Shown: one piece after another, positions 20,846 through 60,700 of the stretch
How the letters are laid out: every line of letters begins with the position of its first letter
How positions within the stretch are numbered: position 1 is the first letter of the stretch
Assembly: GCA_964016885.1 (NCBI GenBank)
Contig: OZ024744.1
Span: forward strand, 43,462,001 to 43,526,000
Length of the DNA stretch: 64,000 nucleotides
Direction of reading: 5' to 3'
Origin: Eledone cirrhosa
Taxonomy: Eukaryota
The notes under the pieces: model-generated
What the model was told of the DNA's origin: nothing
Databases searched by the model: none
What the model saw: the letters and a program-made list of their open reading frames with translations, nothing else
Position numbers and translations under genes: made by a program

Positions 20846-20846
<1 letters not shown>

Positions 20847-23800
20847 TTTTCTTTATTAACCACAAGGGTTTACATAAAGTAGACATTAAGGACAGTACAG
20901 GACAATACAGGACGGTACAAATGGGCATTTCTGCGTGTAAAAAAAACAGAGGATGTAATAAAATAACAAAGAAAGATCCCCAATAGGGGGGAACTTCCGA
21001 GGGACATTTGTGGAGAAAGCCCATTAAAAGACCACAGTGGCCCTGACCACCAGGGCAAGTGCCCTCTCCCAGTTTTCCACCTTTAATTTACAGACACATA
21101 CTCAGAGTAGGCCCATTCACTCGGGCCCATACTTGCCTCTCTCACCCATCTTTCAACAAAATGCTGGGAAGAGAGCACTTCCCTCTCTACCCTGATTTTC
21201 CTTTTCAAATGAAATTTGAAAAAGTTAATCAGGGTATCACCGAAGAGGTAAGTGCTCGTCTTCAGCCCTTTCAAACGTGTCCACCATACTATCTCTTTCG
21301 CCATGGCCACCAGACAGATAAAAACTGCCTGCCCTTCCCGGCTGAAAGAAGAGGGTGGGGAAATCCTCACGATGGACTCAGCTAATAGCTGGATCCGTCC
21401 TACACGTGACAGCAGGTGTTCGACATAAACCCACAAGTCAGCAATGCTCGGACACTGGACGAGTGCGTGCAGGACGGTTTCGTCGCCCTGCGCGCATCTC
21501 GGACATGCCCGACTGACGGCACCTCTATGCCTGTAGAGTTTATCCCGAACTGGCAAAGCTCCCCGGTAGCACTGCCAGGTCAGGGATTTCTGGAAGTTGT
21601 CCATAGGCCCCGGCCCGAAAGTTCTTCCGAAGAGATTGGCTAGTTGATTTTCGTCGACGCCTAGAGTTTCTCCAAGTACGTCGTCGCTCTTCCCCTCCAC
21701 TAATCCTCTATAGAACGCCAAGGGGTAGTTTCCACCGATCACATTGCCCGATTGGTCGAGGGCTGTGAGCGCCTGAAAACATTCCAGTCTACAAGCGCTC
21801 CCTCTCGGTCTTCGCTTGACCCAGGACTGCAGCTCCGTCAAGGAGACGAGCTGGGGAAAGACGTCTCTAGCTAACGGCGACCACACCTGATCACCGTCAA
21901 GGAAGAGGTGGTGATGTCGTAGCCTGAGCGCGTGTCTGCGCATCATCAGCCACGGCATGCCCAGCCCTCCATGTAGCGGGTGTTGACAGCAGATGGACCG
22001 CCTGACCATCGGAGCGCGTCCCTTCCACAAAAAGCGAAAGAGCAAACGCTCCAGCGCAGTCAGACGGGGCTTAGGACAAGGTACGACGGTCAGGCGGTAG
22101 TAGATGACGGACGCGATGTACGCGTTAGCCACCTCCGCTCGACCTTTCAGGGATAGCTTCCTCTCCGCCCATTTTTGAGTGAGAGAAGCCACCCTGCTCG
22201 TCATCTCGTCCCAGTTTTTGTCCGTCTGGAGGTCCGGACCGAACCAGACCCCTAGCAATTTAACCGGTCTGTCCATCCAGCGTCCGACGACGCTGTTGGA
22301 CGGCATGGACCTGCCTCTCCAGGTGCCGAGCTGCAGGCCCACTGACTTTTCCTGGTTGATCATTGCTCCTGTCACCGCTTCGTATTCTCTTAGTGTAGTG
22401 CCGATCGCCTCGATGTGTTTGGCGTTCGACACCACTACGGTGACATCGTCCGCATATGCTGACACGGATCTTCCGCATCCTAGTTCGCGCGGGACGTACC
22501 TCAACGTCTCCAGTTTGTGCAGTAATGGCTCGAGAGTCAATACGTACAAGAGGGACGAGAGGGGACATCCTTGGCGGACCGAGCGCATGATGTTGAACGG
22601 TTCCGAAAGGTGACCGTTCACTCTCACCACAGAGCAGATGTCGCTGTGGATGGCAGCGATCCAGCCTCTGAAGACGGGCCCAAAGCTAGCTGCCCTCAGG
22701 ACTGCCGCTAGGTAACGATGGTCGACCCTATCGAAAGCTTTCGACTGATCTAAATTTATCAAGGATCCACCCTTGCCAGGTTCCCAAGCTACCCTCTCTA
22801 CGATGTATCGCATGAGGTGGAGGTTGTCGTGGATGGATCTGTCGGGAATGGCGCATGTATGCGCCTCTCCCACCAGACCACCAACGACAAGCGCTAACCT
22901 CTTTGCTAGCACCTTGGCCAAAATCTTGAACTCTGTGTTTAGCAGAGTTATGGGCCTAAAATTATCTATGTTATCCCCCTTGTTCGGATCCTTTCTCAGC
23001 AGTGCCACCGCACCTCGGCTTATAGAGCTGGGAATTCTCCCGTTCTGTTGCAAGTTGCAGTAGACGTCCGCGAAGAGGCCTCCGAACAAGTCTGGCATCT
23101 GTACGTAAAGTTCATAGGGCAGACCATCCAAACCAGGCGATTTACCCCTTGTGCAGCCAGTCATTGGCTCCCTTACTTCAGCGGCTGTTATCGGCTTTTC
23201 GCAACACTCCGCTTCAGGGGCCGAGAGCCGCGGCAGTCCGTCGAGGTAGACACTAAAGTCCATCCCTCGACCCGGCCCACCGCTTCCCCCGAAAAGCTGA
23301 GCGAAGTGTCGCTGAAAGGCTTCAGACATTTGCCCGAGATCGAGTAACATGCGCCCGTCGTGGTCCACCAAAGACCGGATCGTGGCTTTGTTGCCACGAC
23401 GCGCCTCCGCCACTCGGGCCCATTGAACGGCTTTCTTCCCCTCGTGTATGAGAGCACGCACCCTAGCTCTGACAACGCAGCCTTCGTGCTTTGCATTGAA
23501 GAATTGGTCAAGGGCCAATTTCGCCACAAGCACGTCGGTCACGATGCCTTTGCTAAGAGCCTCGTATAATTTTCTAACTAGTTCTCCCTCTGCTCTATTT
23601 TTCTCTATTGCTAAAGCCTTACTAAACCTAATGGACTCTATTCTAATGGCTCTTTTCAGAGCAAACCACCACTTGTTGACGATGGCCCCCGTCAACGCCC
23701 GCTTAACTAGTTCGCTAATCCGGTCTCTGTAGGCCTTGCGTGCTGGTAAGGACGCGTTTAGCTTCCACTAGCCGGGTCCTCGTCTATGAAGCCTATCTAA

Positions 23801-26773
23801 GTCAAGCACACAGATCACGAATTTGTGGTCCGTGTAGCTGACTATCTTGAATTGTGGACAGCCTATGCTAGACCAATCTATTTCCCTACAAAATACTCTA
23901 TCTAGATATGATCTGGATGACCCTATGCGATTTGTCCAAGTCCACATTGGCACATTCGGGAAATCCAATCGGTACCTGCCAGACAGTTCAAAACGCCTAA
24001 GCATGTTGGTGAGGCTTTTGCACCCTCCCCCCCCTAGCCGCTAATCTTATACAGTCCCAGCGTGCATCTAAGATCCCGTTCCAGTCGCCCACTAACACTA
24101 AAGAGCGGGACGTTCCAAGAAAGGTCTCCAGACGCCGGAAGAAATCAGGCCGCCCTGCTCCTGTCGGGGCATGACGGCCACTAGCCTGAAAGCTTGCCCG
24201 TCTCCGCTGGTCACCTCCAGCACCACCAACTTACCCTCTGGGTCCAGGAAGATGGCCCGTATGGCAAGATCCAAACCTCTCCGAAAAAGCACAGCAACTC
24301 CTCCCCCCGATCCAGGACGGCTGGGAGATGCGTACACATCTTAGCCGCCGAAGATCGGTGTGAAGGCCCGTGCTTCGGAGATTCTGGTCTCGCTTATGGC
24401 CACTACATCTATGTTTAGTGACCTGAGGTCGTTGAGCAGGTGACCATGCTTCCATGACGACCCCAAGCACGCGCATTTATGTTGCCTATTCTGAGGGAGG
24501 TCATATTTAAAATAGAGTGGAAAAGATGGGAAAGACCACTTACCGTACTTTTCGTAGAGAAAGGATGGTTTTTCCATCCCTTTTCACTTGATCGTCTGGT
24601 GAAGGGACCGTTGAATCGTCCCTTCGGCTGGTCCTCGGCTCTTCTATGAGTATGTCCGAATATACTCTCCGGTTGAGAGTCCCTCCTAGGTCTCTGAAAT
24701 CACCAACTGCGTTGGGGAATTTCGTTTTAATGTTTGTGTATTGTTTCTGTGCTATTTTTAGCAGTCTTATGTTAGTTGGCGTTTTGATCGGTGCTGGTAT
24801 TATGTAGTCCTGTTGTGAAATGTCTGTGTGTTCAATTATGTAAGTCATTAGTTTCTTGTTGTGTATTTATTGCCGTGCATTTGTTTTTCTGGGGGTGGGG
24901 TGTAGTTCTGCTATTTTCTTGTCGTTGTTGCTGGGTGTGTGTGTTTTGTTGTTGTGTTTGCGATGTTGGTGCTTGTGGTGGTGGTGTTGAAGGTGTTGTT
25001 GGCGGTGGGGTTGTCGCCGGTGGTGATGGTGGTGCTAGTGTGGGTGGTGATGGTGTTGGTGGTGTTGCTGCTGTGGGTCTCTTTGCAGTAGACTTTACCC
25101 TTTTCTCATTTCTTTCCTCCCTTTTCGAAGGCGATGATGCGCTGCTTCTGCGTTTGTGCCTTCTTACGACCTTTTGCCATCCCTCTCCCACCTCACACTC
25201 CATGTCTGATTCTGTGAGGTCGGGGCGGGGTACCAGCTCCACTCTTTCACTTGTTGTTGTTGGTGATGTTTGCACTGGAGTCTCTGTTGCAGCTGCATTT
25301 GGTATTACTGTTGTTCTTGTTAATACTTCCACTGCTGCTGCTGCTGTTTTTGATTTCCGTGGCGTGGGTATGGGTGCCACGGACCTATCGTTCCTGGTTT
25401 CCGCTTGTCCTCTTGCTGATAGCCGTGGAGCCGGTTTCGGAAGGGGGAGGATTTTCTGCTTTCTCAGGGTCTTCTCTTTGCAGAAGGCCCTGAGGAGGTG
25501 AGTCTTCGATCCACAGCGAAAGCATTTCGGGCGTTTGCCCTCAACACTTATGGGCAGTTGAGTGCCGTTATCGAAGTCTATCACATCCGGGATAGCTTCG
25601 ATGCACTCCTGGTTGGTTTGGATTAACATCTCAATGGAAGTGCCGACTCAATCTTCTCGGAGGGGACGTGGGTCACTTTGACCCTCACAATTTTTTGCCC
25701 GCAGTAGGAGGGTACCAACACCATTTTCTCGTTCCTTAGGGTCACTAAGGATTGAGCCTTTGCCTCCTGGGGTGTGGCAAAAAGCACGTCTACGGTGGCA
25801 TATTTCTTGCCTCGGGTGATGTGCGTTTTCCGCTGCCACAGACCCTAAGGCTTTTTGTATTTGAGCCTCTGTGGCTCTTTCAACCCTACGGGATTTTGTG
25901 CTTACTGTACGGTACGTGACGGTACAGTGCTGTTGGGTTTCTAAAAAATGTTCAGCTGCCTTGCAGATTGCTCGGTGTCCGGTTTTTGTCACCATCTTCT
26001 TCGCTTCCTGTAATTCCTCATTTGTTATGAGGATGGTTTCCAGGTTCTTTGCGATAACTGCAAACGAGATTGGTTTTTCTTTGCTGCTGTTGTTGTTCTT
26101 GTTGTTGTCGTCAGAGCTGCTGTTAGTTTTGTTGTTGCTGCAGGTACTACGACTACTGCCGCTGTGGTTGTTGTTGCTGTTGCTGCTGCTGCTGCTGCTG
26201 CTGCTGTTGTTGTTGCTGCTAATGCTGTTGTTGTTTATGCTGCTGCTGATGCTGTTGCGGCTGCTACTGTTGTTTTCCTTGTCACTGTTGCTGCTGCTTC
26301 TGTTATTACAGCTGCTACTGCTATTATTCCTGACGTCAGACGAATGAAATGGGTTTTCGTATTTCCCGCACACCTTTTGCGTCGTTGTCGTCGTCGTCGT
26401 GGAGAAATCTTGCACGCTTTGCACGTGATTTTTCTTTTCTGGTGTCGCTTGCGAAAGAGAATGGAGGGAGAGAGACACATTTAGAGAAGGGAGGGAGAGA
26501 GACAATCTTCTCTCTGCTGTAGTGACGATTGAGGAAGAAGACAGAATGAGTGGGAGTGACCTATGAAAATTCTTTTTCGTAGCCATGTTTTTTTTTTGTT
26601 TAAAATAAATATTGGGCACAAAACCCCAATAAGCGGTTATTTAACTCCGAAGGGCCAAATAACGGGCAGAAAGACCCCTCTCACGAGGAGGAGGGTGTGT
26701 TTGTCTACAATTTGGTTAAAGTTTTAGACAATTTACAATTGTTATAGCGGTTAAAATTTACAATACCTTACAG

Positions 26774-29700
26774 CAGTGGTCGCCAACCTTTCTAAAACCG
26801 AGGAACCCTCTAAATATTTTGAATTCTTCACGGAACCTATACAATACAAAACCTTTCAAAAAAAATAATAAAGTATTTATTTATTTTAGTGTTTCATGCG
26901 TGTGTATGTAATCGAACACGATGGCTTTTCTGCTGCTGCGCCTCATCAGTGAGTTTAGAAAATCGAGGTTCAACACTAGTTAATGCCAGTCTCATACACT
27001 CGTCAATTGCCTACAGTTTATTCCTCTTCTTTGTGCAGATTTCCACCAACTGCGAAAACCCTTTTTCGCACAAATAGGAATAAAGTCAAATACTTCAATG
27101 TAAGTAGGCTGATTTCATTAAACTCCCCAATCAAGAATAAGTCGATCCATAGTTCTTTCTTTCTGCTTTCGAATATCACTTTCAGGTCTTCGTTTGAATT
27201 CAAATCCATCAACTGATGTAAGCATTGGGAAGGTAGTAAATTTTTACAATTTCCAGCGTCATTTTCTGACACTAACTGCTCGATCTCGGTGAACGGGTAT
27301 TTTATCCGTAAATTTCCGCTAACAATATCTTTTTCCATCAAAATAATCTGAAAAACCTGTGGAAAGCACATTTAAATGAGAAAGAATAATCTTCTTTAGA
27401 TTGCTGGAGTCAAAATTTTCTCTCTTTTTAAGCTCTATTTCAAGGTTTGAAAGTAATTGTCCGATTCAATTCTTTTTATAAAGATGTTTAATTTTGATTG
27501 AAAATATGTAATAAAATTGATTGAAGTAAAAATATCTGCATTGTTACCCTGAAGACACTTATTTAGTTTGTTCAGTTCACCAAAAATGTCTACTAAATAA
27601 GCGAGTTTCACATTCCATTCATTGGTTTCTAAACACTTGCTCTTTCATCATTCTGTTTTTTTAGAAAAACTATTATTTCTTCTCTCAGTTCAAAAACTCT
27701 CTTCATAGCATCCCCAAAAGACAGCCAACGCACATCATTGTTCAATAACAATCTATTATAATTACTTCCAGAAGATTCACAAATAGATTCAAACATTCTA
27801 GAATTTTTTGCTCTTGCATGGATCAAATTGATAATTTTGACAATGTCTTTCAGCTGGTCATTTAATATTTGAGCATCTCTGTCTTTGAATTTTTTTAACA
27901 CAAAACCTCTCGATAAATCATACAATGATTTGAAATACAATTTGGGGTTTGTTCTTTAATTTTTGCAATCAAACCAGAATTTTTACCAGTCATTGCAGCT
28001 GCTCCATCTGTTGTTATTGAAGTCAACTTGCTCCAAGATACACCATTTAAAAAAAAATACTCTTCAATTTTATTGAATATATCTTGACCTTTAGTTGTGA
28101 TGTCTAATGCCAGACAAAACAAATACTCTTCTACTAATTCTTTTTTATCAAGGTCTACAAACCGTACATAGCAAATTAATTGAGCCTTGTTATTAATATC
28201 CGTAGTTTCGTCCACTTGCAGTCCAAAACATGGGCTTTTCTTTAGTGCAGTTAGTATCTGATTTTCTATATCAGAAGAAATATCAATTATCCCTCTTTTT
28301 ACGGTATTTGCTGACAATGGTAACTGGCTTAATTTTTCTTTGTCCTTAATACTGCAGCTTTCAAAAAGATTCTCTGTAGCAATTTTTATACTTGGTAGAA
28401 TTAACTGTTCTCCTAATGTAAATGGTTTCTGGTTTTTACCAATCAAATGTGAAATCTCAAAAGATGTTCTTGTTAAAGCTTTATTTCTATCTGACCTTTT
28501 ACAAAACAAGTCATACATATTAGCTTGTGATTTTTTTATGTTGTTTTTCAGCGAAGTAAAGTATTCCAGTGACTTGTTTTTATCATTAGTGTGATTAGTA
28601 TCAATGTGTCTTTTAAGTTTTGCAGGATTTAAACAGCTATTTGATAGAACTTTTGAACAGAGAAAACACATGGGCTGATCTGGTGTATCTTTTTTAGTGT
28701 CAGCTTTTTGAAATCCATATCTAACATAATCATCACACCACTGTCTAACCTTACTGCTGGTATCTAACTTCAGCTTCTTTGCAGTAGACATCATATCAAT
28801 GTTATTTATCTACAGTTAACATTTTTAATATGACATTAATAAACAAGAGAAATTAACAGTTTTTTTAATTACAAAAAGTTCTTAAATTAACTTTAATTTT
28901 AGATATTTGGAAAAACTTAACTAGTTAAAAAAAATTTTAATTTTTAAAAATTGAAATTTCTCCATTTTAGGATGGCAAACATATTATTTAAAGTCTTATA
29001 ATAATATTAAAATATTAGGGGTTACTGAAAAAGGTGCAAATTTATGAACAACTAGAAGAAATGTTTTTCAGAGTCCAGCACTTCCTGCATATACTACTTT
29101 AGGGTCGTATTAAATATTATTGGTAATGTAAATATATTTCATCAAATGAATACATAATTGTGTGGCAAAGTTTATAGTGTATGCATGGAATACAAAATTA
29201 CCTTTGTTAGTAGTCAAAACTTTACAGGCGTTATATTTTCTGTGCAAAGTACAACAGAATATAACATGTTCTTATTTAGAATTGTCTGTGGAACTGGATG
29301 CATGTTGAAAACGACTAGTAAGCGAGTTCACTCAGTGAGGAAACGTTAGACGACGTTAAAGCTTTTGTGAGGGCAGCAGATTAAAACGTGTTCTCTATTG
29401 AAAACATTCTACTGAACTTACGTTGTGAGAACAGCGAACTGACCCTGCTTCTTGGCTGAGAGACCTCGCTGAACTGAAGTTTTCAGTTTAAAGTTATGCT
29501 GTCATCGACCAACATTTACTTGTTTGTGATTGGTCAATTTCTAAGTTCAATTAGTGTATTATCAGTAGTAGTCAAATTCTCGGAATTCAGAAAACTATGT
29601 CTTTCCAAGAATTGATGTGAAATTGAAAGTATTCAATTTCCACGAATCTCAGAACAGTGTTTTTCTGCTAATTCAAGTGAGAAACTGAAAGTAGTGTTTT

Positions 29701-29898
29701 CCACGAATTGGAGTGGAGAACCTATGTACACTACAATAGTACTTGTTCATTTATACATTGCACCTTTGGCATTTTCTTTGCACCTTTTTCAGAAAACCCA
29801 AATTATTAATGGTAATGTAAATATTTATTTTTTTAAGGAACCCGGAGTTTGTTTTACGGAACCCCAAGGTTCCGCGGAACCCATGTTGGCGACCACTG
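26774..29898 (-). mobile_element. hAT (Buster-type) DNA transposon, 3125 bp
   Basis: Perfect 14-bp TIR CAGTGGTCGCCAAC; 8-bp TSD CCTTACAG (26766-73 / 29899-906) with central TA; single site in the sister Tx1 copies (~48355, ~54644). Confidence 0.97.
26894..28794 (-). pseudogene. hAT transposase (BED zinc finger + DDE), frameshifted
   Basis: CFLCSKVLSN..LKRHIDTNH, LQVDETTDI, SITTDGAAAMTG, HCMIYRE (usual CxxH altered), VRWLS, C-terminal dimerisation remnants; split over ORFs 27895-28794, 27629-27940 and 27018-27371. Confidence 0.92.
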
Positions 29899-29934
29899 CC
29901 TTACAGAGCCGAGCCTCCGTCAACCATAGCATTC

Positions 29935-29991
<57 letters not shown>
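29935..29991. repeat. (AAT)n junction between Tx1 5' end and Dong-B 5' end
   Basis: Pure AAT run. Confidence 0.95.
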
Positions 29992-29993
<2 letters not shown>

Positions 29994-32900: not shown

Positions 32901-33590
32901 GTGGTTGAAGCACCATATCTACAAGGAGGAGGCTAGCCCACTGTGCAGGATCTGTGGAGAGAGAGAGGAGACTGTGGCTCACATTGTGTCCGAGTGTAAA
33001 CACCTAGCCCAGACCCACTATAAGGGCTGGAGACACGATGTGATGGGCAGGGTGATCCACTGGCACCTGTGCAAAGTAAACAATCTACCACATTCTGAGA
33101 AATGGTATGAGCATAGGCCAGAGGCGGTGATGGAGAACAATCAGGTGAAGGTGCTGTGGGATTTTAGGATACAGACGGACAAAAAACTGGAACACAATAG
33201 ACCTGACCTGGTGGTTGTGGACAAAGAAAAAAGATCGTGCCTGATTGTGGATGTGGCCTGCCCGTTCGACACGAGAGTGCAAGAGAAGGAGAGGGAGAAA
33301 ATTAACCGATACTAGGACCTAAAGTGGGAGGTGAAAAGGATTTGGAACTGCCATGAAGTCAAAGTGATCCCGATTGTCATAGGCGCACTGGGGACTATCT
33401 CCAAAGGTTTCCAGGGATGGTTAAAGAAAATCGGCCCCTTCACGCTTTTTGGAACGCTTCAAAAGGCATGCTTGCTTGGAACGGCAAGAACCCTCCGATA
33501 CGTCCTGAATATCTGAGGCTGCAGGTAGTGGCTTGATATTCAATCCAACGGACTTTCCAGTTAACCAACATCAATGACTGAGATTCAAGG
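29992..33590 (+). mobile_element. Full-length R4/Dong-type element, family B
   Basis: Flanked by (AAT)n on both sides; short 5' and 3' UTRs; single long ORF. Confidence 0.93.
30124..33516 (+). pseudogene. Dong-B polyprotein (N-terminal domain, RT, CCHC, RLE) with one premature TAG at 33313-33315
   Basis: 1063-aa ORF: YRPITCL, WIDYRKAFD, GIFQGDSLSP, FMDDLKL, CRICGEREETVAHIVSEC, RHD, RPDLVVVD..DVACP; continues in frame after the TAG (DLKWE...VIPIVIGALG...LRYVLNI*). Confidence 0.92.
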
Positions 33591-33626
33591 AATAACAATA
33601 ACAATAATAATAATAATAATAATAAC

Positions 33627-36600: not shown

Positions 36601-37032
36601 CAAAGAGGGTATGCCTGCTAATTGATATGTCTGTTCCAATAGACAAGAATGTATCTATAAAAACAATTGAAAAATTGAGCAAGTATAATGACCTGGAGAT
36701 AGAAATTGGAAAAATGTGGAAATTGAGAACTAAAACAATACCAGTGGTTGTAGGCGCTCTGGGAATGATACCTAAGGGGTCTAATGATTACTTATCGCAG
36801 ATCCCAGGAAGCCCGCGTATAGGAGAAATACAAAAGATAGTACTAATGGGAACTGCCCATATACTAAGGAAGATTCTGTCAATATAAGTACATCACAAGT
36901 CTAAACAATAAAGATGCATGTGTGAGTATGTATGTTCTTTCTTGAACATGGCGGACCTTGTTGTCTCTTGAGGTCACTGGTTGTGACTTGGTGATAACTC
37001 GTATGAACATAAAGCAAGATAAATGCAACTGT
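33627..37032 (+). mobile_element. 5'-truncated R4/Dong family A copy 2 (frameshifted)
   Basis: Highly similar to 17035-20794 but without the solo LTR; ORF pieces 33807-34451, 34481-36088 and 36369-36887; (AAT)n on both sides. Confidence 0.93.
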
Positions 37033-37050
37033 AATAATAATAATAATAAT

Positions 37051-42367: not shown

Positions 42368-42369
<2 letters not shown>

Positions 42370-48390: not shown

Positions 48391-48441
48391 AATAATAATA
48401 ATAATAATGATTTCTTTATTGGCCACAATTAATAATAATAA

Positions 48442-48627
48442 TTGTTTCTACTTTAGGCACAAGGCCAGCAATTACCTAGTGCATTACTGGTACTTTATTT
48501 TATCGACCCCATAAGGATGAAAGGCAAAGTTAACCTCGGCGGGATTTGAACTCAGATCGTAAAGGGACGTAACTATGCTGGAAAGGATGGCGTCCGACCC
48601 TCTACCGATACTGCCAATCCACCGCCC
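48442..48627 (-). mobile_element. tRNA-derived SINE
   Basis: 5' GGGCGGTGGATTGGCAGTATCGG, B-box GAGTTCAAATCC, tail ggccttgtgcctaaagtagaaacaattatt; flanked by (AAT)n. Confidence 0.9.
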
Positions 48628-48912
48628 TAATAATAATAATAATAATAATGATTTCTTTATTAACCACAAGGGTTTACATAAAGTAGACATTAAGGACAGT
48701 GCAGGACAATGCAGGACGGTACAAATGGGCATTTCTGCGTGTAAAAAAAACAAAAACAGAGGATGTAACAAAAATAACAATGAAAATAACAATGAAAAAT
48801 TCCCCAATAGGGGGGAGACTTCGGAGGGACATTTGTGGAGAAAGCCCAGTAAAAAGCCACAATGACCCTGACCACCAAGGCAAGTGCCCTCTCCCAGTTT
48901 TCCACCTTTAGT

Positions 48913-51900
48913 TTACAGATATATACTCAGAGTCGGCCCATTCACTCGGGCCATTCTTGCTTCTCTTACCCATCTTTCAACAAAATGCTGGGAAGAGAGC
49001 ACTTCCCTCTCTACTCTGATTTTCCTTTTCAAATGAAATTTGAAAAAGTCAATCAGAGCATCACCGAAGAGGTAAGTGCTCGTCTTCAGCCCTTTCAAAC
49101 GTGTCCACCATACTATCTCTTTCGCCATGGCCACCAGACAGATAAAAACTGCCTGCCCTTCCCGGCTAAAGGAGGAGGGCGGGGCAATCCTCACGATGGA
49201 CTCAGATGATAGTTGGATCCGTCCTAAACGCGACAGCAGGTGTTCGACATAAACCCACAAGTCAGCAATTTTCGGACACTGGACGAGTGCGTGCAGGACG
49301 GTTTCGTCGCCCTGCGCGCATCTCGGACATGCCCGGCTGACGGCACCTCCATGCCTGTAGAGTTTATCCCGAACTGGCAAGGCTCCTCGGTAGCACTGCC
49401 AGGCCAGAGATTTCTGGAAGTTGTCCATAGGCCCTGGCCCGAAAGTTCTTCCGAAGAGATTGGCTAGTTGATTTTCGTCGACGCCTAGAGTTTCCCCAAG
49501 TACGTCATCGCTCTTCCCCTCCACTAATCCTCTATAGAACGCCGAGGTGGAGTTTCCACCGATCACATTGCCCGATTGGTCGAGGGCTGTGAGCGCCTGA
49601 AGACATTCCAGTCTCCAGGCGCTCCCTCTCGGTCTTCGCTTGACCCAGGACTGCAGCTCCGTCAAGGAAACGAGCTGGGGAAACACGCGTCTAGCAAACG
49701 GCGACCACACCTGATCACCGTCGAGGAAGAGGTGGAGATGTCGTAGCCTGAGCGCGTGCCTGCGCATCATCAGCCACGGCATGCCCAGCCCTCCACGTAG
49801 CGGGTGTTGACAACAGATGGACCGCCTGACCAACGGAGCGCGTCCCTTCCACAAAAAGCGAAAGAGCAAACGCTCCAGCACAGTCAGGCGAGGCTTAGGA
49901 CAAGGTACGACGGTCAGGCGGTAGCAGATGACGGACGCGATGTACGCGTTAGCCACCTCCGCTCGACCTTTCAGGGATAGCTTCCTCTCGGCCCATTTCT
50001 GGGTGAGAGAAGCCACCCTGCTCGTCACCTCGTCCCAGTTTTTGTCCGTCTGGAGGTCCGGACCGAACCAGACCCCTAGCAATTTAACCGGTCCGTCCGT
50101 CCAGCGTCCGACGACGCTGTTGGACGGCATGGACCTGCCTCTCCAGGTGCCGAGCCGCAGGCCCACTGACTTTTCCTGGTTGATCATTGCTCCTGTCACC
50201 GCTTCGTATTCTCTTAGTGTAGTGCCGATCGCCTCGATGTGTTTGGCGTTCGACACCACTACGGTGACATCGTCCGCATATGCTGATACGGATCTTCCGC
50301 ATCCTAGTTCGCGCGGGACCCCCCTCAACGTCTCCAGTTTGTGCAGTAATGGCTCGAGAGTCAATACGTACAAGAGGGACGAGAGGGGACATCCTTGGCG
50401 GACCGAGCGCATGATGTTGAACGGTTCCGACAGGTGACCGTTCACTCTCACCACAGAGCAGATGTCGCTGTGCATGGCAGCGATCCAGCCTCTGAAGACG
50501 GGCCCAAAGCCAGCCGCTCTCAGGACTGCCGCTAGGTAACGATGGTCGACCCTATCGAAAGCTTTCGACTGATCTAAATTGATCAAGGACCCACCCGTGC
50601 CAGGTTCCCTAGCTACCCTCTCTACGATGTATCGCATGAGGTGGAGGTTGTCGTGGATGGATCTGTCGGGAATGGCGCATGTCTGCGCCTCTCCCACCAG
50701 ACCACCAACGACAAGCGCCAACCTCTTTGCTAGCACCTTGGCCAAAATCTTAAACTCTGTGTTTAGCAGAGTTATGGGCCGGAAATTGTCTATGTTATCC
50801 CTCTTGTTCGGATCATTTCTCAGCAGTGCCACCGCTCCTCGGCTCACAGAACTGGGAATTCTCCCGTTCTGTTGCCAGTTGCAGTAGACGTCCGCCAAGA
50901 GGCCTCCGAACAAGTCTGGCATCTGTACGTAAAGTTCATAGGGCAGACCATCCAAACCAGGCGATTTACCCCTTGTGCAGCCAGTCATTGCCTCCCTTAC
51001 TTCAGCGGCTGTTATCGGCTTTTCGCAACACTTCGCCTCAGTGGCCGAGAGCCGCGGCAGTCCGTCGAGGTAGACACTAAAGTCCATCCCTCTACCCGGC
51101 CCCCCGCTGCCCCCGAACAGCTGAGCGAAGTGTCGCTGAAAAGCTTCACACATTTGCCCGGGATCGAGTAGCATGCGCCCGTCGTGGTCCACCAAAGACC
51201 GGATCGTGGCTTTGTTGCCACGACGCGCCTCCGCCACTCGGGCCCATTGAACGGCTTTCGTCCCCTCGTGTCTGAGAGCACGCACCCTAGCTCTGACAAC
51301 GCAGCCTTCGTGCTTTGCATTGAAGAATTGGTCAAGGGCCAATTTCGCCGCAAGCACGTCGGTCGCAATGCCTTTGCTAAGCGCCTCGTCTAATTTTCTA
51401 ACTAGTTCTCCCTCTGCTCTATTTTTCTCTATTGCTAAAGCCTTACTAAACCTAATCGATTCTATTCTAATCGCTCTTTTCAGAGCAAACCACCACTTGT
51501 TGTTGACGATGGCCCCCGTCAACGCCCGCTTAACTAGTTCGCTAATCCGGTCTCTGTAGGCCTTGCGCGCTGGTAAGGACGCGTTTAGCTTCCAGTAGCC
51601 GGGTCCTCGTCTATGAAGCCTATCTAAGTCAAGCACACAGATCACGAATTTGTGGTCCGTGTAGCTGACTATCTTGAATTGTGGACAGCCTATGCTAGAC
51701 CTATCTATTTCCCTACAAAATACTCTATCTAGATATGATCTGGATGACCCTATGCGGTTTGTCCAAGTCCACATTGGCACATTCGCGAAATCCAATCGGT
51801 ACCTGTCAGACAGTTCAAAACGCCTGAGCAGGTTGGTGAGGCTCTTGCACCCTCCACCCCTATCCGCTAATCCCACACAGTCCCAGCGTGCATCTAAGAT

Positions 51901-52332
51901 CCCGTTCCAGTCGCCCACTAACACTAAAGAGCGGGACGTTCCAAGAAAGGTCTCCAGACGCCGGAAGAAATCAGGCCGCCCTGCTCCTGTCGGGGCATAG
52001 ACGGCCACTAGCCTGAAAGCTTGCCCGTCTCCGCTGGTCACGTCCAGCACCACCAGCTTACCCTCTGGGTCCAGGAAGATGGCCCGTATGGCGAGATCCA
52101 AACCTCTCCGAAAAAGCACAGCAACTCCTCCACCCGATCCAGGACGGTTGGGAGATGCGTACACATCGTAGCCGCCGAAGATCGGTACGAAGGCCCGTGC
52201 TTCGGAGATTCTGGTCTCGCTGATGGCCACTACATCTATGTTTAGTGACCTGAGGTCGTTGAGCAGGTGACCCTGCTTCCATGACGACCCCAAGCCACGC
52301 GCATTTATGCTGCCTATTCTGAGTGAGGTCAT
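48913..52332 (-). CDS. Tx1 ORF2: APE endonuclease + reverse transcriptase (1139 aa)
   Basis: All motifs intact: GSINARGL, SET, GDWN, YLDR, TDH, QGCPLS, YADD, CPRC..H...C. Confidence 0.95.
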   Translation of the reverse strand: MTSLRIGSINARGLGSSWKQGHLLNDLRSLNIDVVAISETRISEARAFVPIFGGYDVYASPNRPGSGGGVAVLFRRGLDLAIRAIFLDPEGKLVVLDVTSGDGQAFRLVAVYAPTGAGRPDFFRRLETFLGTSRSLVLVGDWNGILDARWDCVGLADRGGGCKSLTNLLRRFELSDRYRLDFANVPMWTWTNRIGSSRSYLDRVFCREIDRSSIGCPQFKIVSYTDHKFVICVLDLDRLHRRGPGYWKLNASLPARKAYRDRISELVKRALTGAIVNNKWWFALKRAIRIESIRFSKALAIEKNRAEGELVRKLDEALSKGIATDVLAAKLALDQFFNAKHEGCVVRARVRALRHEGTKAVQWARVAEARRGNKATIRSLVDHDGRMLLDPGQMCEAFQRHFAQLFGGSGGPGRGMDFSVYLDGLPRLSATEAKCCEKPITAAEVREAMTGCTRGKSPGLDGLPYELYVQMPDLFGGLLADVYCNWQQNGRIPSSVSRGAVALLRNDPNKRDNIDNFRPITLLNTEFKILAKVLAKRLALVVGGLVGEAQTCAIPDRSIHDNLHLMRYIVERVAREPGTGGSLINLDQSKAFDRVDHRYLAAVLRAAGFGPVFRGWIAAMHSDICSVVRVNGHLSEPFNIMRSVRQGCPLSSLLYVLTLEPLLHKLETLRGVPRELGCGRSVSAYADDVTVVVSNAKHIEAIGTTLREYEAVTGAMINQEKSVGLRLGTWRGRSMPSNSVVGRWTDGPVKLLGVWFGPDLQTDKNWDEVTSRVASLTQKWAERKLSLKGRAEVANAYIASVICYRLTVVPCPKPRLTVLERLLFRFLWKGRAPLVRRSICCQHPLRGGLGMPWLMMRRHALRLRHLHLFLDGDQVWSPFARRVFPQLVSLTELQSWVKRRPRGSAWRLECLQALTALDQSGNVIGGNSTSAFYRGLVEGKSDDVLGETLGVDENQLANLFGRTFGPGPMDNFQKSLAWQCYRGALPVRDKLYRHGGAVSRACPRCAQGDETVLHALVQCPKIADLWVYVEHLLSRLGRIQLSSESIVRIAPPSSFSREGQAVFICLVAMAKEIVWWTRLKGLKTSTYLFGDALIDFFKFHLKRKIRVEREVLSSQHFVERWVREARMARVNGPTLSIYL

Positions 52333-52367
52333 GTTTAAAATAGAGTGGAAAAGATGGGAAAGACCAC

Positions 52368-54464
52368 TTACCGTACTTTTGGTAGAGGAGGGATGGTTTT
52401 TACATCCCTTTTCACTTGATCGTCTGGTGAAGGGACCGTTGAATCGTCCCTTCGGCTGGTCGTCGGCTCTTCTAAGAGAATGTCTGAGTATACACTTCGA
52501 TTGATGGTTCCTCCTAGGTCCCTGAAATCACCAACTGCGTTGGGGAATTTCGTTTTAATGTTTGTGTATTGTTTCTGTGCTATTTTTAGCAGTCTTATGT
52601 TAGTTGGCGTTTTGATTGGTGCTGGTATTATGTAGTCCTGTTGTGAAATGTCTGTGTGTTCAATTATGTAAGTCATTAGTTTCTTGTTGTGTGTATTTAT
52701 TGCCGTGCATTTGTTTTTCTGGGGGTGGGGTGTGGTTCTGCTATTTTCTTGTCGTTGTTGCTGGGTGTGTGTGTTTTGTTGTTGTGTTTGCGATGTTGGT
52801 GCTTGTGGTGGTGGTGTTGAAGGTGTTGTTGGCGGTGGGGTTGTCGCCGGTGGTGATGGTGGTGCTAGTGTGGGTGGTGATGGTGTTGGTGTTGTTGCTG
52901 CTGTGGGTCTCTTTGCAGTAGACTTTACCCTTTTCTCATTTCTTTCCTCCCTTTTCAAAGGCGACGATGCGCTGCTTCTGCGTTTGTGCCTTCTTACGAC
53001 CTTTTGCCATCTCTCTCCCACCTCACACTCCATGTCTGATTCTGTGAGGTCGGGGAGGGGTACCAACTCCACTCTTTCACTTGTTGTTGTTGGTGATGTT
53101 TGCACTGGAGTCTCTGTTGCAGCTGCATTTGGTATTGCTGTTGTTGTTGTTAGTATTTCCACTGCTGCTGCTGTTTTTGATTTCCGTGGAGTGGGTATGG
53201 GTGCCACGGGCCTATCGTTCCTGGTTGCCGCTTGTCCTGTTGCTGGTAGCCGTGGAGCCGGATTCGGAAGGAGGGGGGTTTTCTCCTTTCTCAGGGTCTT
53301 CTCGTTGCAGAAGGCCCTGAGGTGAGTCTTCGATCCACAGCGAAAGCATTTCGGGCGTTTGCCCTCAACACTTATGGGCAGTTGAGTGCCGTTATCGAAG
53401 TCTATCACATCCGGGATAGCTTCGATGCACTCCTGGTTGGTTTGGATTAGCATCTCAATGGAGGAGCCGACCCAATCTTCTCTTACTTTTTTCTGTACTT
53501 GCAGTACAGTTGTTTTGTCCTCGATTCCGACGAGGACAGACGCGGCCAGCCAAGAAGGGGTCATTCCGGGGGGGACGTGGGTCAGTTTGACCCTCACAAT
53601 TTTTTGCCCACAGTAGGAGGGCACCAACACCATTTCCTCGCTCCTTAGGGTCACTACTGATTGGGCCTTTGCCTCCTGGGGTGTGGCAAAAAGTACGTCT
53701 ACAGTGGCATATTTTTTGCCTCGGGTGATGTGCGTTTTCCGCTGCCACACAGACCCCAAGGCTTTTTGTATTTGGGCCTCTGTGGCTCTTTCCACCCTAC
53801 GGGATTTTGTACTTACTGTACGGTACGTGACCGTACAGTGCTCTTGGGTTTCGAAAAAATGTTTCGCTGCCTTGCAGATTGCTCGGTGTCCGTTCTTTGT
53901 CACCATCTTCTTCGCTTCCTCTAATTCCTCATTTGTTATGAGGATTGTTTCCAAGTTTTTCGCAATACCTGCAAATGAGATTGGTTTTTCTCTGCTGTTG
54001 TTGTTGTCGTCAGAGCTGCTGGTACTTTTGTTGTTGCTGCAGGTACTACGACTACTGCCTCCGCCGCTGTTGCTGTGGTTGTTGTTGGTGTTGCTGCTGC
54101 TAATGCTGTTGTTGTTTATGCTGCTGGTGATGCTGTTGCGGCTGCTACTGTTGTTTTCATTGTCACTGTTGCTGTTGTTATTACGGCTGCTACTGCTATT
54201 ATTCCTGACGTCAGACGAATGAACTGGGTTTTCGTATTTCCCGCACACCTGTTTCGTCGCTGTCGTCGTCGTCGTGGAGAAACCTTGCACGCTTTGCACG
54301 AGACTTTTCTTTTCTTTCGTCACTTGCGAAAGAGAAGGGAGGGAGAGAGACACATTTAAAGAAGGGAGGGAGAGAGACAATCTTCTCTCTGCTGTAGTGA
54401 TGATTGAGGAAGAAGAAGACGGAATGAGTGGGAGTGACGTATGAAATTTCTTTTTCGTAGCCAT
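52368..54464 (-). CDS. Tx1 ORF1 (698 aa): Ser/Asn-rich N-terminus, probable RNA-binding core, CCHC knuckle, Pro/Thr linker, conserved C-terminal domain
   Basis: Open frame ending 35 bp upstream of ORF2; CFRCGSKTHLRAFC; homologous pieces in the other four Tx1 copies. Confidence 0.9.
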   Translation of the reverse strand: MATKKKFHTSLPLIPSSSSSIITTAERRLSLSLPSLNVSLSLPSLSQVTKEKKSLVQSVQGFSTTTTTATKQVCGKYENPVHSSDVRNNSSSSRNNNSNSDNENNSSSRNSITSSINNNSISSSNTNNNHSNSGGGSSRSTCSNNKSTSSSDDNNNSREKPISFAGIAKNLETILITNEELEEAKKMVTKNGHRAICKAAKHFFETQEHCTVTYRTVSTKSRRVERATEAQIQKALGSVWQRKTHITRGKKYATVDVLFATPQEAKAQSVVTLRSEEMVLVPSYCGQKIVRVKLTHVPPGMTPSWLAASVLVGIEDKTTVLQVQKKVREDWVGSSIEMLIQTNQECIEAIPDVIDFDNGTQLPISVEGKRPKCFRCGSKTHLRAFCNEKTLRKEKTPLLPNPAPRLPATGQAATRNDRPVAPIPTPRKSKTAAAVEILTTTTAIPNAAATETPVQTSPTTTSERVELVPLPDLTESDMECEVGERWQKVVRRHKRRSSASSPLKREERNEKRVKSTAKRPTAATTPTPSPPTLAPPSPPATTPPPTTPSTPPPQAPTSQTQQQNTHTQQQRQENSRTTPHPQKNKCTAINTHNKKLMTYIIEHTDISQQDYIIPAPIKTPTNIRLLKIAQKQYTNIKTKFPNAVGDFRDLGGTINRSVYSDILLEEPTTSRRDDSTVPSPDDQVKRDVKTIPPLPKVR

Positions 54465-54730
54465 ATTGTTTTTTTGTTTAAAATGAATATTGGGTACAAA
54501 ACCCCAATAACTGGTTATTTAACCCCGAAGGGCCAAATAACGGACAGAAAGACCCCTCTCACGAGGAGGAGGGTGTCTTTATCAACAATTTGGTTCAAGT
54601 TTTAAACAATTTACAATTGTTTTAACGGTTAAAAATTACTATACCTTACAGAGCCGAGCCTCCGTCAACCATGGCATTCAATAATAATAATAATAATGAT
54701 TTCTTTATTGGCCACAATTAATAATAATAA

Positions 54731-54916
54731 TTGTTTCTACTTTAGGCACAAGGCCAGCAATTACCTAGTGCATTACTGGTACTTTATTTTATCGACCCCA
54801 TAAGGATGAAAGGCAAAGTTAACCTCGGCGGGATTTGAACTCAGATCGTAAAGGGACGTAACTATGCTGGAAAGGATGGCGTCCGACCCTCTACCGATAC
54901 TGCCAATCCACCGCCC
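54731..54916 (-). mobile_element. tRNA-derived SINE, identical to 48442-48627
   Basis: Base-for-base match by eye. Confidence 0.9.
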
Positions 54917-54944
<28 letters not shown>

Positions 54945-54948
<4 letters not shown>

Positions 54949-57900
54949 TCTTTATTGACCACAAGCCTATTAAAAAAGCCACGGTGACCCTGACCACCAG
55001 GGCAAGTGCCCTTCAATTTACAGGCACATACTCAGAGTAGGTCCATTCACTTGGGCCATTCTTGCCTCTCTCACCCATCTTTCAACAAAATGATGGGAAG
55101 AGAGCACTTCCCTCTCTACCCTGATTTTTCCTTTTCAAATAAAATTTGTAAAAGTTAATCAGGGCATCAGCGAAGAGGTAAATGCTCGTCTTCAGCCCTT
55201 TCAGACGCGTCCACCATACTATCTCTTTCGATATGGCCACCAGAGAGATAAAAAAATGCCTGTCCTTCCCGGCTAAAGGAAGAGGGCGACGAAATCCTCA
55301 CGATGGATCTGTTCTACACGCGACATAAAACCACAAGTCAGCAATGCTCGGAAACTGGACGAGTGCGTGCAGGACGGTTTCGTCGCCCTGCGCGCATCTC
55401 GGACATGCCCGATTGACGCCACTTCCATGCCTGTAGAGTTTATCCCGAACTGGTAAAGCTCCTCGGTAGCACTGCCAGGCCAGGGATTTCTGAAAATTGT
55501 CCATAGGCCCCGGCCCGAAAGATCTTCCGAAGAGATTGGCTAGTTGATTTTCGTCGACGCCTAGATTTTCCCCAAGTACGTCATCGCTCTTTCCCTCGAC
55601 TAACCCTCTATAGAACGCCAAGGTTGAGTTTCCAGCGATGGTATTGACCGAGTGGTCGAGTGTTGTAAGAGCCTGAAGACATTCTAGTCAGCAAGCACTT
55701 CCTCTCGGTCTTCGCTTAACCCAGGACTGCAGCTCCGCCAAGGAGACTAGCTGGGGCAACATGTGTTTAACAAACGGCGACCACACCTGATCATCGTCGA
55801 GGAAGAGGTGGAGATGCCGTAGCCTGAGCGCGTCCCTTCCACAAAAACCGAAAGAGCAAACGCTCCAGCGTAGTCAGCCGAGGCTTAGGACAAGGCACGA
55901 CGGTCAGGTGGTAGTAGATGACGGACGCGATGTATGCATTCTCCCCGTCCACTCGACCTTTCAGGGATAGCGTCCTCTCCGCCCATTTCTGGGTGAGAGA
56001 AGCCACCCTGCTCGTCACATCGTCCCAGTTTTTGTCCGTCTGGAGGTCCGGACCGAACCAGACCCCTAGCAATTTAACCGGTCCGTCCGTCCAGCGCCCG
56101 ACGAAGCTGATGGACGGCATGGACCTGCCACTCCAGGTGCCGAGCTGCAGGCCCACAGACTTTTCCTGGTTGATCATTGCTCCTTTCACCGCTTCGTATT
56201 CTCTTAGTGTAGTGCCGATCGCCTCGATGTGTTTGGCGTTCGACACCACAACGGTGACATCCTCCGCATATGCTGATACGGATCTTCCGCATCCTAGTTT
56301 GCGCGGGACCCCCTCAACGTCTCCAATTTGTGCAGTAATGGCTCGAGAGTCAATACGTACAAGGAGGACGAGGGGGGATATCCTTGGCGGACCTAACGCA
56401 TGATGTTGAACGGTTCCGAAAGGTGACCGTTCACTCTCACCACAGAGCAGATGTCGCTGTGCATGGCAGCGATCCAGCCTCTGAAGACGGGCCCAAAGCC
56501 AGCCGCCCTTAGGACTACCGCTAGGTAACGATGGTCGACCCTATCGAAAGCTTTCGACTGATCTAAATTGATCAAGGACCCACCCGTGCCAGGTTCCCTA
56601 GCTACTCTCTCCACGATGTATCGCATGAGGTGGAGGTTGTCGTGGATGGATCTGTCTGGAATGGCGCATGTCTGCGCCTCTCCCACCAGACCACCAATGA
56701 CAAGCGCCAACCTCTTTGCTAGCACCTTGGCCAAAATCTTGAACTCTGTGTTTAGAAGAGTTATGGGCTTGAAGTTATCGATAACACCCCCCTTGTTCGG
56801 GTCTTTTTTCAGCAACGCCACCGCTCCCCGGCTCACAAAACTAGGAATGCCCCCGTTCTGCTGCCAGTTGCAGTAGACGTCTGCTAAGAGGTCACCGAAC
56901 AAGTCTGGCATAAATGCATAAAGCTCGTAGGGCAGACCATCTAAACCTGGCGATTTACCCCTTGTGCAGTTAGCCATCGCTTCCCGTATTTCACCGGCTG
57001 TTATTGGTTTTTCGCAACACTGTGCTGCAGTCGTCGAGAGCGGAGGCAGTCCGTCCGTCGAGGTGTGCGCTGAAGTCCATACGTCGATCCGGCCCGCCGC
57101 TGCTTCCGAACAGTTCACAAAGTGCTGCTGAAAAGCCTCACACATCTCCTCGGGATCGAGCAACACGCGCCCGTTTTGGTCAGACAAAGACCGAATTGTG
57201 GCTTTGTTGCCACGTCGCGCCTCTGCCACCCGGGCCCATTGGACGGCTTTTGTCCCCTCATGGTTCAAAGCACGCGCTCTAGCTCTGACAACGCAGCCTT
57301 CGTGTTTTGCGTTGAAGAATTGGTCGAGTGCCAATCTCGTCGCAAACACGTCGGTTGCGATGCCTGTCCTAAACACCTCTTCTAGCTTTCTGACTAGCTC
57401 TCCCTCTACTCTATTTTCCTCTATACCTAGTCCTTTGCTAAACCTAATCGACTCTACTTTCATTGCCCTTTTCAGGGCGAACCACCACCTGTTGTTGACG
57501 ACCGCTCCTGTCAACGCCCGCTTAACTAATACGCTAATCCGGTCTCTGTAGGCTTGCGCGCCGGGAAAGACGCGTTCAGCTTCCAGTAACCGGGTCCTTG
57601 TCTATGAAGTCTGTCTATGTCGATCTCACAGATCACAAATGTGTGGTCTGTGTAGTGGACTATTTTAAATTGTAGACAACTTATACTAGCCTTATTTAGT
57701 TCTCTGCAGAATACCCTATCGAGATACGATCTGGATGACCCGATACGGTTTGTCCATGTCCACATTGGCACATTCGGGTGATCCAGTCGATACCTGTCAG
57801 ACAGTTCAAAACGTCTGAGCAGGTTGGTGAGGCTCTTGCACCCTCCTCCCCTATCCACTAGCCCCAGACAATCCCAGCTTGCATCCAAGATACCGTTCCA

Positions 57901-60692
57901 GTCGCCAACTAACACTAAAGAGTGGGACGTTCCAAGAAAGGTCTCTAGACGTCTGAAGAAATCTGGCCGTACTGCCCCTGTCTGGGCGTAGACGGCTACT
58001 AGCCTGAAAGCATTGCCTTCGCTGCCGGTCACGTCCAACACCAGCGACTTACCTTCTGGGTCCAGGAAGATGGCCCGTATGGCGAGATCCAAGCCTCTCC
58101 GAAAAAGGACGGCAACCCCTCCCCCCGATCCTGGACGGCTGGGAGATGCGTATACATCGTAGCCGCCGAAGATCGGTGCGAAGATCGGTGCGAAGGCTCG
58201 TGCTTCGGAGATTCTGGTCTCGTTGATGGCGACCAGATCTATGTTTAGTGACCCGAGGTCGTTGAGCAGGTGACCCTGCTTCCAAGATGACACCAGGCCA
58301 CGTGCATTTATACTGCCTATTCTAAGTACGGCCATGTTGGATGAAAAACGGGGCAAGTGAGAAAGGGTCACTTACCTTGATCATGTAGTGAAGGGACAGT
58401 AGAACCGTCCCTTTGGCTGGTCATGGGGGTTTCCAAGAGGACGTCAGTGAATATCCTCTTGGTAACCGACCCTCTGAAGTCTCCAACTGCGTTGGGGAAT
58501 TTTTGTTTTAAAAGTTTGTACTGTTCTATTTTGATATCAATGATGCTTATGTTTGTCGGGAGAGTTCTTGGTGTTGGTGGGGTGTAGTAGTTTTTTTCTG
58601 TGATGTCTGTGTGCTGCTTTATATGTCGTATGAGTTCTTTATTTGCCATGTTTGGCTGTGTACTTTTTGGGGGGAGGGGTGATGTTGTTGCTGTTTTCTT
58701 CTTGTTACTGTTTGGTGTGTGTGTTTTGTTGTGTTTGCATTGTTGGTGTTTTTGGTGATACTGGTGGTGGTGTGGTTGTTGTTGGCGGTGGTGCTTGTGG
58801 TGGTGATGGTGATGGTGATGGTGGTGGTGTTGCTGCAAGTCTCCTTGCAGCCTTTACCTTTCTTTGTGTGCCTTCGCTTTTGGAGGGCGATGCTAAGGTT
58901 TTTTTGTTTTTTTTTTGTTTTTGTGGCAGACCGTTTGCCACTTCACTCCCGTCTCAGACTCCAAGTTGGATTCCGTAGCGTCTGGGAGGGGTATGTGCTC
59001 CACGGCTGTTGGTGGAGGAAGTGGAGCCCTTTCCGGCAATATTGTTGCTGGTGCAGCTACTTCAAATGTAGCCATTGTGTTGCCGCCACTGATGCTGCTG
59101 CTTTAGTTATCCGTGGCCTTGGTACCGGTGCCACGGACGTTGCCCTCCTACTCACCGTGGAAGGGGCTTCTGCGTTAGTTGCCTGCCCTGCTCTTGGTAG
59201 CAGCGGACCAGGTATTGGAAGGAGAGGGGCCTTCTTCTTCGCTGTCTTCTGCAGGCAAAAGGCCCTGAGGTGACCCTTTGATCCACGCTTATAGGGAGAT
59301 GGAGTCCTTCCTTGGGGATAGCGTCGATACACTCCACGTCAGTTTGTATAAGCCTTTGCATGCCTATACCTGACCAGTTCTCTCTCCCTATTTTCTCTAC
59401 TTGCAGCATGGTCGTCCTGTCCTCGATTCCAGCAAGGACAGACGCGGCCAGCCAAGGTATGGGCACGTCGGGTGGGACCTGGGTCACTTTGACCCTCACA
59501 ATTTTTTGCCCGCAGTAGGAGGGCACCAAGACTATCTCCTCACTCTTTAGGGTTTGCAAAGAGTGAGACTTCGCTTCTTGGGAGGTAGCGAAAAGTACGT
59601 CTTCTGTGGCGTACTTTCTGCCTCATGTGATGTGGGATTTGCCGCTTAACAAAAGGGTGACATTGCTCATCTAGAAAACACACTTGGTGTTTTTTAAGCT
59701 CTTTGTTTGCAAACAAACCGAATATTATGATATTATTATAATCTTGTTTCTACTTTTTGGCACACAGTTCTGGATTTGGGCTTCCGTTGTTCTCTCCACA
59801 TGAGGCGATTTCGAGGCAATTGTGAGGTATGACACTGTGCGTCGTTCTTGTTCCTCCAGGAAGTCGGTTGGTGGTTTCAAGGACACTGAAAATTCAGTTC
59901 TGGTTAGCATGTGTCTTGCGACCGCCATCTCCTCCTCTGCGACCAGGACTGTTTCTACGTTGCGAGCCACCTTTGCAAAAGAGATGGTCTCTTTTTCAGT
60001 GGCATCACTGTTGCCACCGCTACAGCTGCTACTGCTCTTGTTGTTGGTACTGTTGCTGTTGCTACTGCTACAAATGGTGTTGTTGGTGCTGTTGCTGTTG
60101 CTGCTACTACAAATGGTGTTGTTGGTGTTGTTGCTGTTATCACTGTTGCAGTTGATTGTGTCTTTGGTGTCACCGCTGTTGTTGTTCTCGGTACAGTTTT
60201 TATTGTTGCTGTTGGTGTTGTCGCTATTTATTTTCTTGTTAATGGTGTGAATATCGTTGTTGCATTTGTCATTTTTTCTGTTGTCTGTATCTTGGTTGTC
60301 CCTGTTACTGTTGTGGTTGGTGTGGTTATTTTTTTCAAAATTAGTGTTCTCAGTGTTGTTGTCATTGCTGTCTTTGTTCACGTTATTTGTGGTGGTGCTT
60401 GTATCAATTTCTGTGTTCGCCGTAACCCTCCTCTCAACTTTTACGTCGTTGTTACACAACAGCAGACATGTCACACGACAGCAGACATCACGGGGGGACG
60501 CGGCTCAACCATGTTTACTTTTCGATAATTTTTAAAAGTAACAAGTTCAAATATTTGGGACAAAAGGCCCAAAAATTAAACTTTCCCCTTCACTTATATC
60601 CCTTACACAACAATAACATTTAACAATAAATGATTTATGACAGGTAAATAAAGAGATTTACGAGAGCGAGCAAACAGACGTCCGAGCAGCCC
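54945..60692 (-). mobile_element. Full-length decayed Tx1-type LINE with a third ORF1/5' end type
   Basis: ORF2 pieces 57526-58336, 56393-57514, 55791-56249 and 55298-55621; ORF1 pieces ~60510-58368; several deletions; (AAT)n at both ends. Confidence 0.88.
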
Positions 60693-60700
60693 AATAATAA

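Follow-up and report, generated by a model that had tools for sequence, protein, structure and literature searches.

The 64,000-nucleotide stretch of contig OZ024744.1 analyzed here (positions 43,462,001 to 43,526,000; the window) contains five copies of a long interspersed element (LINE) with an apurinic endonuclease (APE), each of which is joined at both ends to ATT repeats. We regard the targeting of (ATT)n microsatellites by this young LINE lineage across the genome as almost certain. The observations comprise the insertion sites, their single orientation, the phase of the junctions, the lack of poly(A), and duplications that are found in truncated copies and in a short interspersed element (SINE) but not in full-length copies. 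Judging from sequence, insertion into (ATT)n is probably set by a short nuclease preference acting together with annealing between the element RNA and its target. The lineage itself is likely Tx1-type, and the chances somewhat favor (ATT)n being an undescribed target for elements of this type.

The five copies are as follows:

20846–29934, minus strand: copy A, full-length and degenerate, interrupted 36 nt from its head
37051–42301, minus strand: copy E, with a second 5' module (GGCGAC head), a C-like endonuclease (EN) domain, and a diverged reverse transcriptase (RT) and 3' end
42368–48390, minus strand: copy B, the 98% tandem partner of copy C, with open reading frame (ORF) 1 frameshifted
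48650–54679, minus strand: copy C, full-length and coding-intact, with the C-type head and C-type 3' end
54945–60692, minus strand: copy D, of an older subfamily 79–85% identical to C, with a third 5' module (GGGCTG head)

Read on the element strand, the heads are ATTATT|GAATGC in A, B, and C, ATTATT|GGCGAC in E, and ATTATT|GGGCTG in D, while the 3' ends follow the form AATAAA(T)GAAA-NN|ATTATT, where NN is AC, TC, TC, TC, and GT, and poly(A) is absent. An earlier note on this DNA had described five copies with three different 5' ends, all beginning ATTATT|G, and 3' ends of this form, and both descriptions are correct. However, B and C have a single, duplicated 5' context between them. The two copies and a spacer of ~260 bp that contains the SINE make up a tandem repeat at 98%; of the 84 substitutions over ~6300 columns, none falls in the first 270, so their 5' junctions represent a single event.

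The same junctions recur throughout the 3.0-Gb genome, where they were counted with exact-match patterns, which favor the youngest copies. These patterns recover 6284 C-type and 1036 E-type 3' ends. TTATT directly precedes 2268 of the 2307 exact C-type heads. Full-length copies do not show the heterogeneous 5' flanks that the earlier note had named as evidence against its reading. TTATT also precedes 98 of the 100 first-listed E-type heads (1358 E-type heads overall, a count that omits heads with G as the fifth upstream base). In a 310-kb local sample, by comparison, 0.34% of positions have TTATT in front of them, and 0.045% are starts of (ATT)4. The D-type patterns are copy-specific, with one end match and two head matches, the second of which shares the flank of the window copy and is not independent; D-like heads at two further loci are also ATT|G.

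For closer reading, 60 C-type ends, each with 7 kb upstream, were drawn from the 100 listed first, some tandem neighbors being skipped. Fifty-nine run on as ATT without poly(A), as the earlier note had it for the window, 53 as ATTATT, and 44 into at least four perfect units; among 30 sampled E-type ends, 26 run on as ATT and four begin ATAAT. Ends with a single ATT number 137 genome-wide, and 59 of them were examined. The 60 copies were read by hand, as were the loci at which automated chaining was wrong (L032, L038, L063, L066, L069, L071, L077, L129, and L159). Thirty-three copies are full-length, 25 are truncated, and two (L038 and L066) are ambiguous. The full-length copies include 30 with exact ATTATT|G and three with small variants, and the median array is 15 units upstream and 12 downstream (31 heads found by regular expression, one from a neighbor copy). 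At least 150 copies are 99–100% identical in EN, mostly in a full-length frame, which indicates that the family is young. A protein search with EN returned near-identical copies only and reached no relative with a different target.

The (ATT)n array is an insertion target and not only a tail. Fifteen of the 25 truncated copies adjoin an ATT array or an ATT-starting duplication at the 5' junction, several with 7–30 units, and as a truncated cDNA has no leader, these arrays predate insertion. The 60 sampled 3' flanks include R4-like ends in the opposite direction (21), another copy of the LINE (10), or the SINE in the same direction (8).

The exact 5' phase, in contrast, is limited to full-length copies. 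Fifteen truncated junctions were compared with phase, nine of which are resolvable; phases 0, 1, and 2 are allowed in seven, nine, and six of these, which gives no discrimination, and two (L144 and L159) exclude the ATT| phase. Clear ATT-starting duplications are present in truncated copies L056 (16–17 bp), L136 (18 bp), L154 (14–16 bp), and L165 (10–13 bp), the first from the unselected sample and the other three from the single-ATT selection. The SINE, which is tRNA-like, is very abundant (38,042 exact 33-mer ends genome-wide), and has the LINE's 3' layout in common, is likely carried by this LINE lineage. All 30 sampled SINE ends (L294–L323) run on as ATT, only two of them into four or more units. 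Duplications are clear at 13 of these loci, measure 9–19 bp, and all start ATTA (12 start ATTAT), and the preceding base is C or T in 13 of 13, compared to 64% in the local background. From the duplications of the SINE and the truncated copies, we read the first nick as ATAAT^R and the second as variable, and the endonuclease preference readable from them would be a short Y^ATTAT motif.

Sites that combine ATT with CTT bear on the same question. In all 19 full-length copies with an ATT(CTT)n 3' flank, the head is preceded by pure ATT, and CTT is not duplicated. CTT occurs within four units of the LINE end at 45 loci, and exactly one ATT comes first in 37 of these, a pattern that could result from an RNA-templated A after priming inside CTT or from a nick that prefers the boundary. 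At L129, the two parts of a SINE split by a colinear copy, positions 7–84 and 65–186, share a 20-bp duplication (two mismatches); this duplication is separated from the head by (ATT)12, although the SINE target has no array there. As a separate observation, the 3' flanks of L035, L121, L122, L126, L137, L138, L162, and L164 contain a further repeat family after (CTT)n, in the same direction and with a variable start, possibly another (CTT)n-associated element.

We propose the following sequence of events. Transcription of the LINE would start at least one ATT unit upstream of the head G and run past the last base, and because AATAAA is only 6–7 nt from the LINE end, cleavage would fall inside the downstream AUU run. 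The ORF2 protein would bind a CUUGU hairpin near the 3' end, and its APE domain would nick the (AAT)n strand at ATAAT^R. The nicked ...AAT-3' strand could then pair with the AUU tail, with reverse transcription beginning at the first unit; priming at this point would fix the 3' phase, skip poly(A), and favor long arrays. The second nick would be variable, 9–19 bp downstream. Truncated cDNAs would join via 0–4 nt of microhomology, keeping the duplication, while full-length cDNAs, with AAT at their end, would pair in register with the upstream ATT and shed any non-ATT overhang, resulting in ATT|G nearly always.

A more far-reaching version of this model is tentative, and we lean somewhat against accepting it in full. 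According to it, the enzyme would read only a five-base motif, while AUU acquired from the donor site at both ends of the RNA would select long arrays and determine the junction on either side. The choice of target would in that case perpetuate itself and be programmed in part by the RNA, the LINE would have converged on the microsatellite of Dong with an unrelated nuclease, and an octopod SINE would be driven via the shared CUUGU hairpin. If the RNA-programmed reading is correct, a change in the flanking repeats would retarget the LINE.

The earlier note had instead suggested a possible new APE specificity. In an explanation of this kind, long (ATT)n would be recognized by the endonuclease alone, which would cut the two strands at a fixed phase (AAT^AAT and ATT^ATT), with no role for the RNA flanks. 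The oriented insertion into (ATT)n holds genome-wide, but the exact 5' phase is found only in full-length copies and is better explained by annealing between RNA and target. We consider the endonuclease-alone explanation unlikely, although several points are consistent with it: the five copies hardly differ in the loop that precedes D202 (WTWTNRIGSSRSYLD), though D is 85% identical in EN; L136 and L165, two of the four clear LINE duplications, end at TT|ATT; and EN-determined targeting is given as the rule for Tx1 elements in PMC4494074. It does not readily account for SINE duplications that vary in length and mostly end outside ATT, for SINE sites of which so few have four or more units, for the junctions of L144 and L159, or for the (ATT)12 at L129.

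Other points weigh against the combination of a short nuclease preference with RNA–target annealing. Seven of the nine truncated junctions that can be resolved would allow a cut at ATT|, as the endonuclease-alone explanation would have it. Ten of the 25 truncated copies are without ATT at the 5' junction and adjoin an antisense R4-like interior (4), (CTT)n (2), (AAT)n (1), or other DNA (3). Two truncated copies at ATT(CTT)n sites, L162 and L164, are likewise without a CTT duplication, so full-length copies are not the only ones that lose it. L129 stands alone, and two different SINE copies could mimic its layout. The AUU leader and tail on the LINE RNA are predicted from genomic DNA. Use of the LINE ORF2 protein by the SINE is suggested by the hairpin, and the nick motif read from the SINE may be that of an older relative. 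Finally, the genome-wide counts are weighted toward young copies, and the 60-copy sample was drawn from the first 55 Mb of one contig.

It is quite improbable that the LINE brings (ATT)n with it as tail and leader at each insertion, into AT-rich sites for which it has a weak preference, such that the arrays are products rather than targets. L129 does show an array carried in by RNA, short ATTAT sites serve as SINE targets, and microsatellite tails are common in RTE elements (PMC9115989, in which "Tx1" does not occur). However, long upstream arrays are present at truncated copies, and L136, L154, and L165 have duplications without an extra tail. Moreover, among 59 head-bearing loci, the sequence that follows the downstream array matched the one ahead of the upstream array only once, in what was itself ATT repeat (a test that missed L129), and the antisense R4-like ends in 21 of 60 3' flanks bring their own (TAA)n. 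Least credible, and largely refuted by the junction counts, is broad insertion followed by retention, or by multiplication through unequal crossing-over, only in ATT-rich repeat heaps; the B/C tandem repeat and the spacing of many listed copies at ~6 kb are consistent with it, but selection has no means of fixing one orientation and a phase exact to the base in 98% of copies that number in the thousands, the at least 150 copies noted above are nearly identical in EN, and the flanks beyond the arrays are diverse.

Copy C encodes the following features:

52368–54464, minus strand: ORF1, 698 aa, with one CCHC knuckle
48913–52332, minus strand: ORF2, 1139 aa, with APE (~1–243), RT (YADD at 685), and a C-terminal CCHC
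48662–48674, minus strand: 3' hairpin with a 4-bp stem and CTTGT loop, just upstream of AATAAA

ORF1 proteins of the Tx1 clade are known for an RRM region and a CCHC knuckle. The copy C ORF1 has no Pfam match, but its look-alikes by protein language model belong to CCHC and ZCCHC3-RBD clusters (0.91–0.93), suggesting an RRM/ZCCHC3-like region. ORF2 matches PF03372, PF00078, and PF13966 and retains all of the APE catalytic residues (E39, D141, N143, D202, D226, and H227). Its best relative of solved structure is human L1 ORF2p (E 1e-50), ahead of R2, and its closest named relative is from Argonauta hians (74% identity), which makes an octopod host probable. A model of EN built with a 55-row alignment has a pLDDT of 93 and a TM score of 0.83 to L1 EN, compared to a pLDDT of only 34 from the single sequence.

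The stem below the CTTGT loop is AACC/GGTT in the C-type, GGCC/GGCC in the E-type, and GGC/GCC in the SINE, and these changes are compensatory. Folding of the 3' 61 nt yields weak z-scores (−0.1 to −1.8), so the case for the hairpin rests on covariation and not on energy. An HDV-like ribozyme at the LINE heads was considered by eye only and dropped. Assembled contigs matching copy C place the LINE family in three DNA-type runs of three studies and provide no transcript ends; metagenome loci related to the LINE are 25–33% identical, with one at 42%.

Copy E is a mosaic, with its own 5' module, an EN that is C-like at 95%, and a 3' part at 78%. E-type heads occur on C-type bodies in 15 of the 60 sampled copies. 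Exchange of the 5' module (untranslated region and ORF1) takes place at a constant position immediately ahead of ORF2 (~2264 in C), and there are at least three head types.

The arrangement of ORF2, with an N-terminal APE, an RT, and a C-terminal CCHC, is that of the L1/Tx1 group. In a quick RT tree that includes no characterized Tx1 member, the window copies group with Argonauta (99) and with relatives at 43% identity (99), and they fall beside, not inside, a group containing TX1-named coral proteins; the deep forks are provisional, and identity to a TX1-named protein is 31%. Microsatellite-specific Tx1 families have been defined by one sequence type in >20% of flanks (PMC4494074); for the present LINE, ATT is found at 98% of heads and 59 of 60 ends. 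Known Tx1 microsatellite targets are (TC)n for Kibi, (TTC)n for Koshi, and (TTCC)n/(TTTC)n for crocodilian families (PMC4494074, PMC3812793). Like these, the present element is an APE-RT LINE of the L1/Tx1 group that inserts in microsatellites, but they occupy polypyrimidine repeats in vertebrates, whereas it occupies (ATT)n in what is likely an octopod. A target like that of Kibi or Koshi is not indicated, as CTT lies within four units at just the 45 loci noted above versus at least 6284 ends.

Dong elements, of the R4 clade, have a restriction-like endonuclease (RLE). In the accessible part of the review PMC3812793, which groups Dong with APE elements, TAA repeats are listed as a target only for Dong, in Bombyx, Anopheles, and Biomphalaria. 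The microsatellite is thus the same as that of the LINE, and R4-like elements occupy the same arrays. However, the single ORF and C-terminal restriction-like endonuclease of Dong/R4 differ from the two ORFs and N-terminal APE found here, and the R4-like elements of this genome have a C-terminal PD-D type domain and run in the opposite direction.

The contrast between full-length and truncated junctions resembles that described for R1A in the Drosophila melanogaster group, where full-length 5' junctions are precise and without duplication while truncated copies are duplicated (PMC2718515). The same source describes rare "insertion site rearrangements" that combine a duplication with upstream target sequence, explained by upstream target sequence on the RNA, and the layout of L129 is the same. 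R1A belongs to a different clade and uses a single 28S rDNA site, unlike the dispersed microsatellite with thousands of sites used here. Recent activity of L1-Tx1 and Dong-R4 families is reported for Octopus vulgaris (13 families, 421 recent insertions; PMC13282606, PMC8967140), and in the accessible parts of these papers the counts of both kinds of family come without a named target site. The literature searched, a set that lies outside subscription papers, Repbase, and Dfam, contained no Tx1 element targeting ATT/AAT.

With these insertions, the targets known for APE LINEs would come to include an AT-rich microsatellite, and the thousands of young insertions form a ready dataset. According to PMC3812793, the route by which APE elements reach microsatellites is not yet well understood. 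In the present genome, the role of the nuclease is separated from that of the RNA ends by the contrast between full-length copies, truncated ones, and the likely partner SINE, and copies with intact ORF2 make this question testable. Targeting of (ATT)n would explain the nested heaps of LINE, R4-like, and SINE copies, and AAT microsatellite markers in octopods may have repetitive flanks for the same reason.

Arrays and other elements around the five copies are listed below:

20794–20845, minus strand: (ATT)17 array 3' of A, which also serves a plus-strand R4-like element as its (TAA)n end
26774–29898, strand not given: hAT-like DNA transposon in copy A, 3125 bp, with 14-bp terminal inverted repeats, an 8-bp duplication, and a weak DUF4371 match
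29935–29991, minus strand: (ATT)19 array on the 5' side of A, with a plus-strand R4-like head next to it
29992–33590, plus strand: R4/Dong-like RLE element with (AAT)n on both sides, RT, CCHC, a PD-D type C-terminus, and one stop near the end
33624–37031, plus strand: element of a second R4-like family, 5'-truncated, with a (TAA)n end; further 3' ends at 15664 and 20793
37032–37050, minus strand: (ATT)6 array on the 3' side of E, located at an R4-like 3' end
42302–42367, minus strand: (ATT)22 array separating B and E
48391–48649, minus strand: spacer between B and C, comprising (ATT)7, SINE (48442–48627), (ATT)4, a 21-nt LINE 3' stub, and (ATT)6
48409–48429 and 54698–54718: two 21-nt stubs of the LINE 3' end, absent from the earlier note
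54680–54944, minus strand: second copy of the spacer, between C and D, with the SINE at 54731–54916
60693–61330, minus strand: SINE stack 5' of D, with short ATT runs between SINEs

The two plus-strand elements at 29992–33590 and 33624–37031, which we take to be R4/Dong-like from their motifs, contain an RT, a C-terminal CCHC, and a PD-D type region, and their best match of solved structure is R2. The segment 14705–15689 was considered as an empty site and rejected, as it is a further copy of the R4-like 3' end. At L036, L082, L086, and L090, a truncated LINE is directly joined to an antisense R4-like interior, which suggests deletions at the 5' junction of one element.

Elsewhere in the window, 4437–4636 is an assembly gap of 200 N. 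A 2.9-kb inverted repeat with 99% identity (4637–7512 and 9044–11902) flanks a 705-aa minus-strand frame (6902–9019), for which a Pfam search gave no match. At 63348–64000 lies a fragment of this LINE lineage that is older and includes an inverted segment (ORF2 residues ~806–977).

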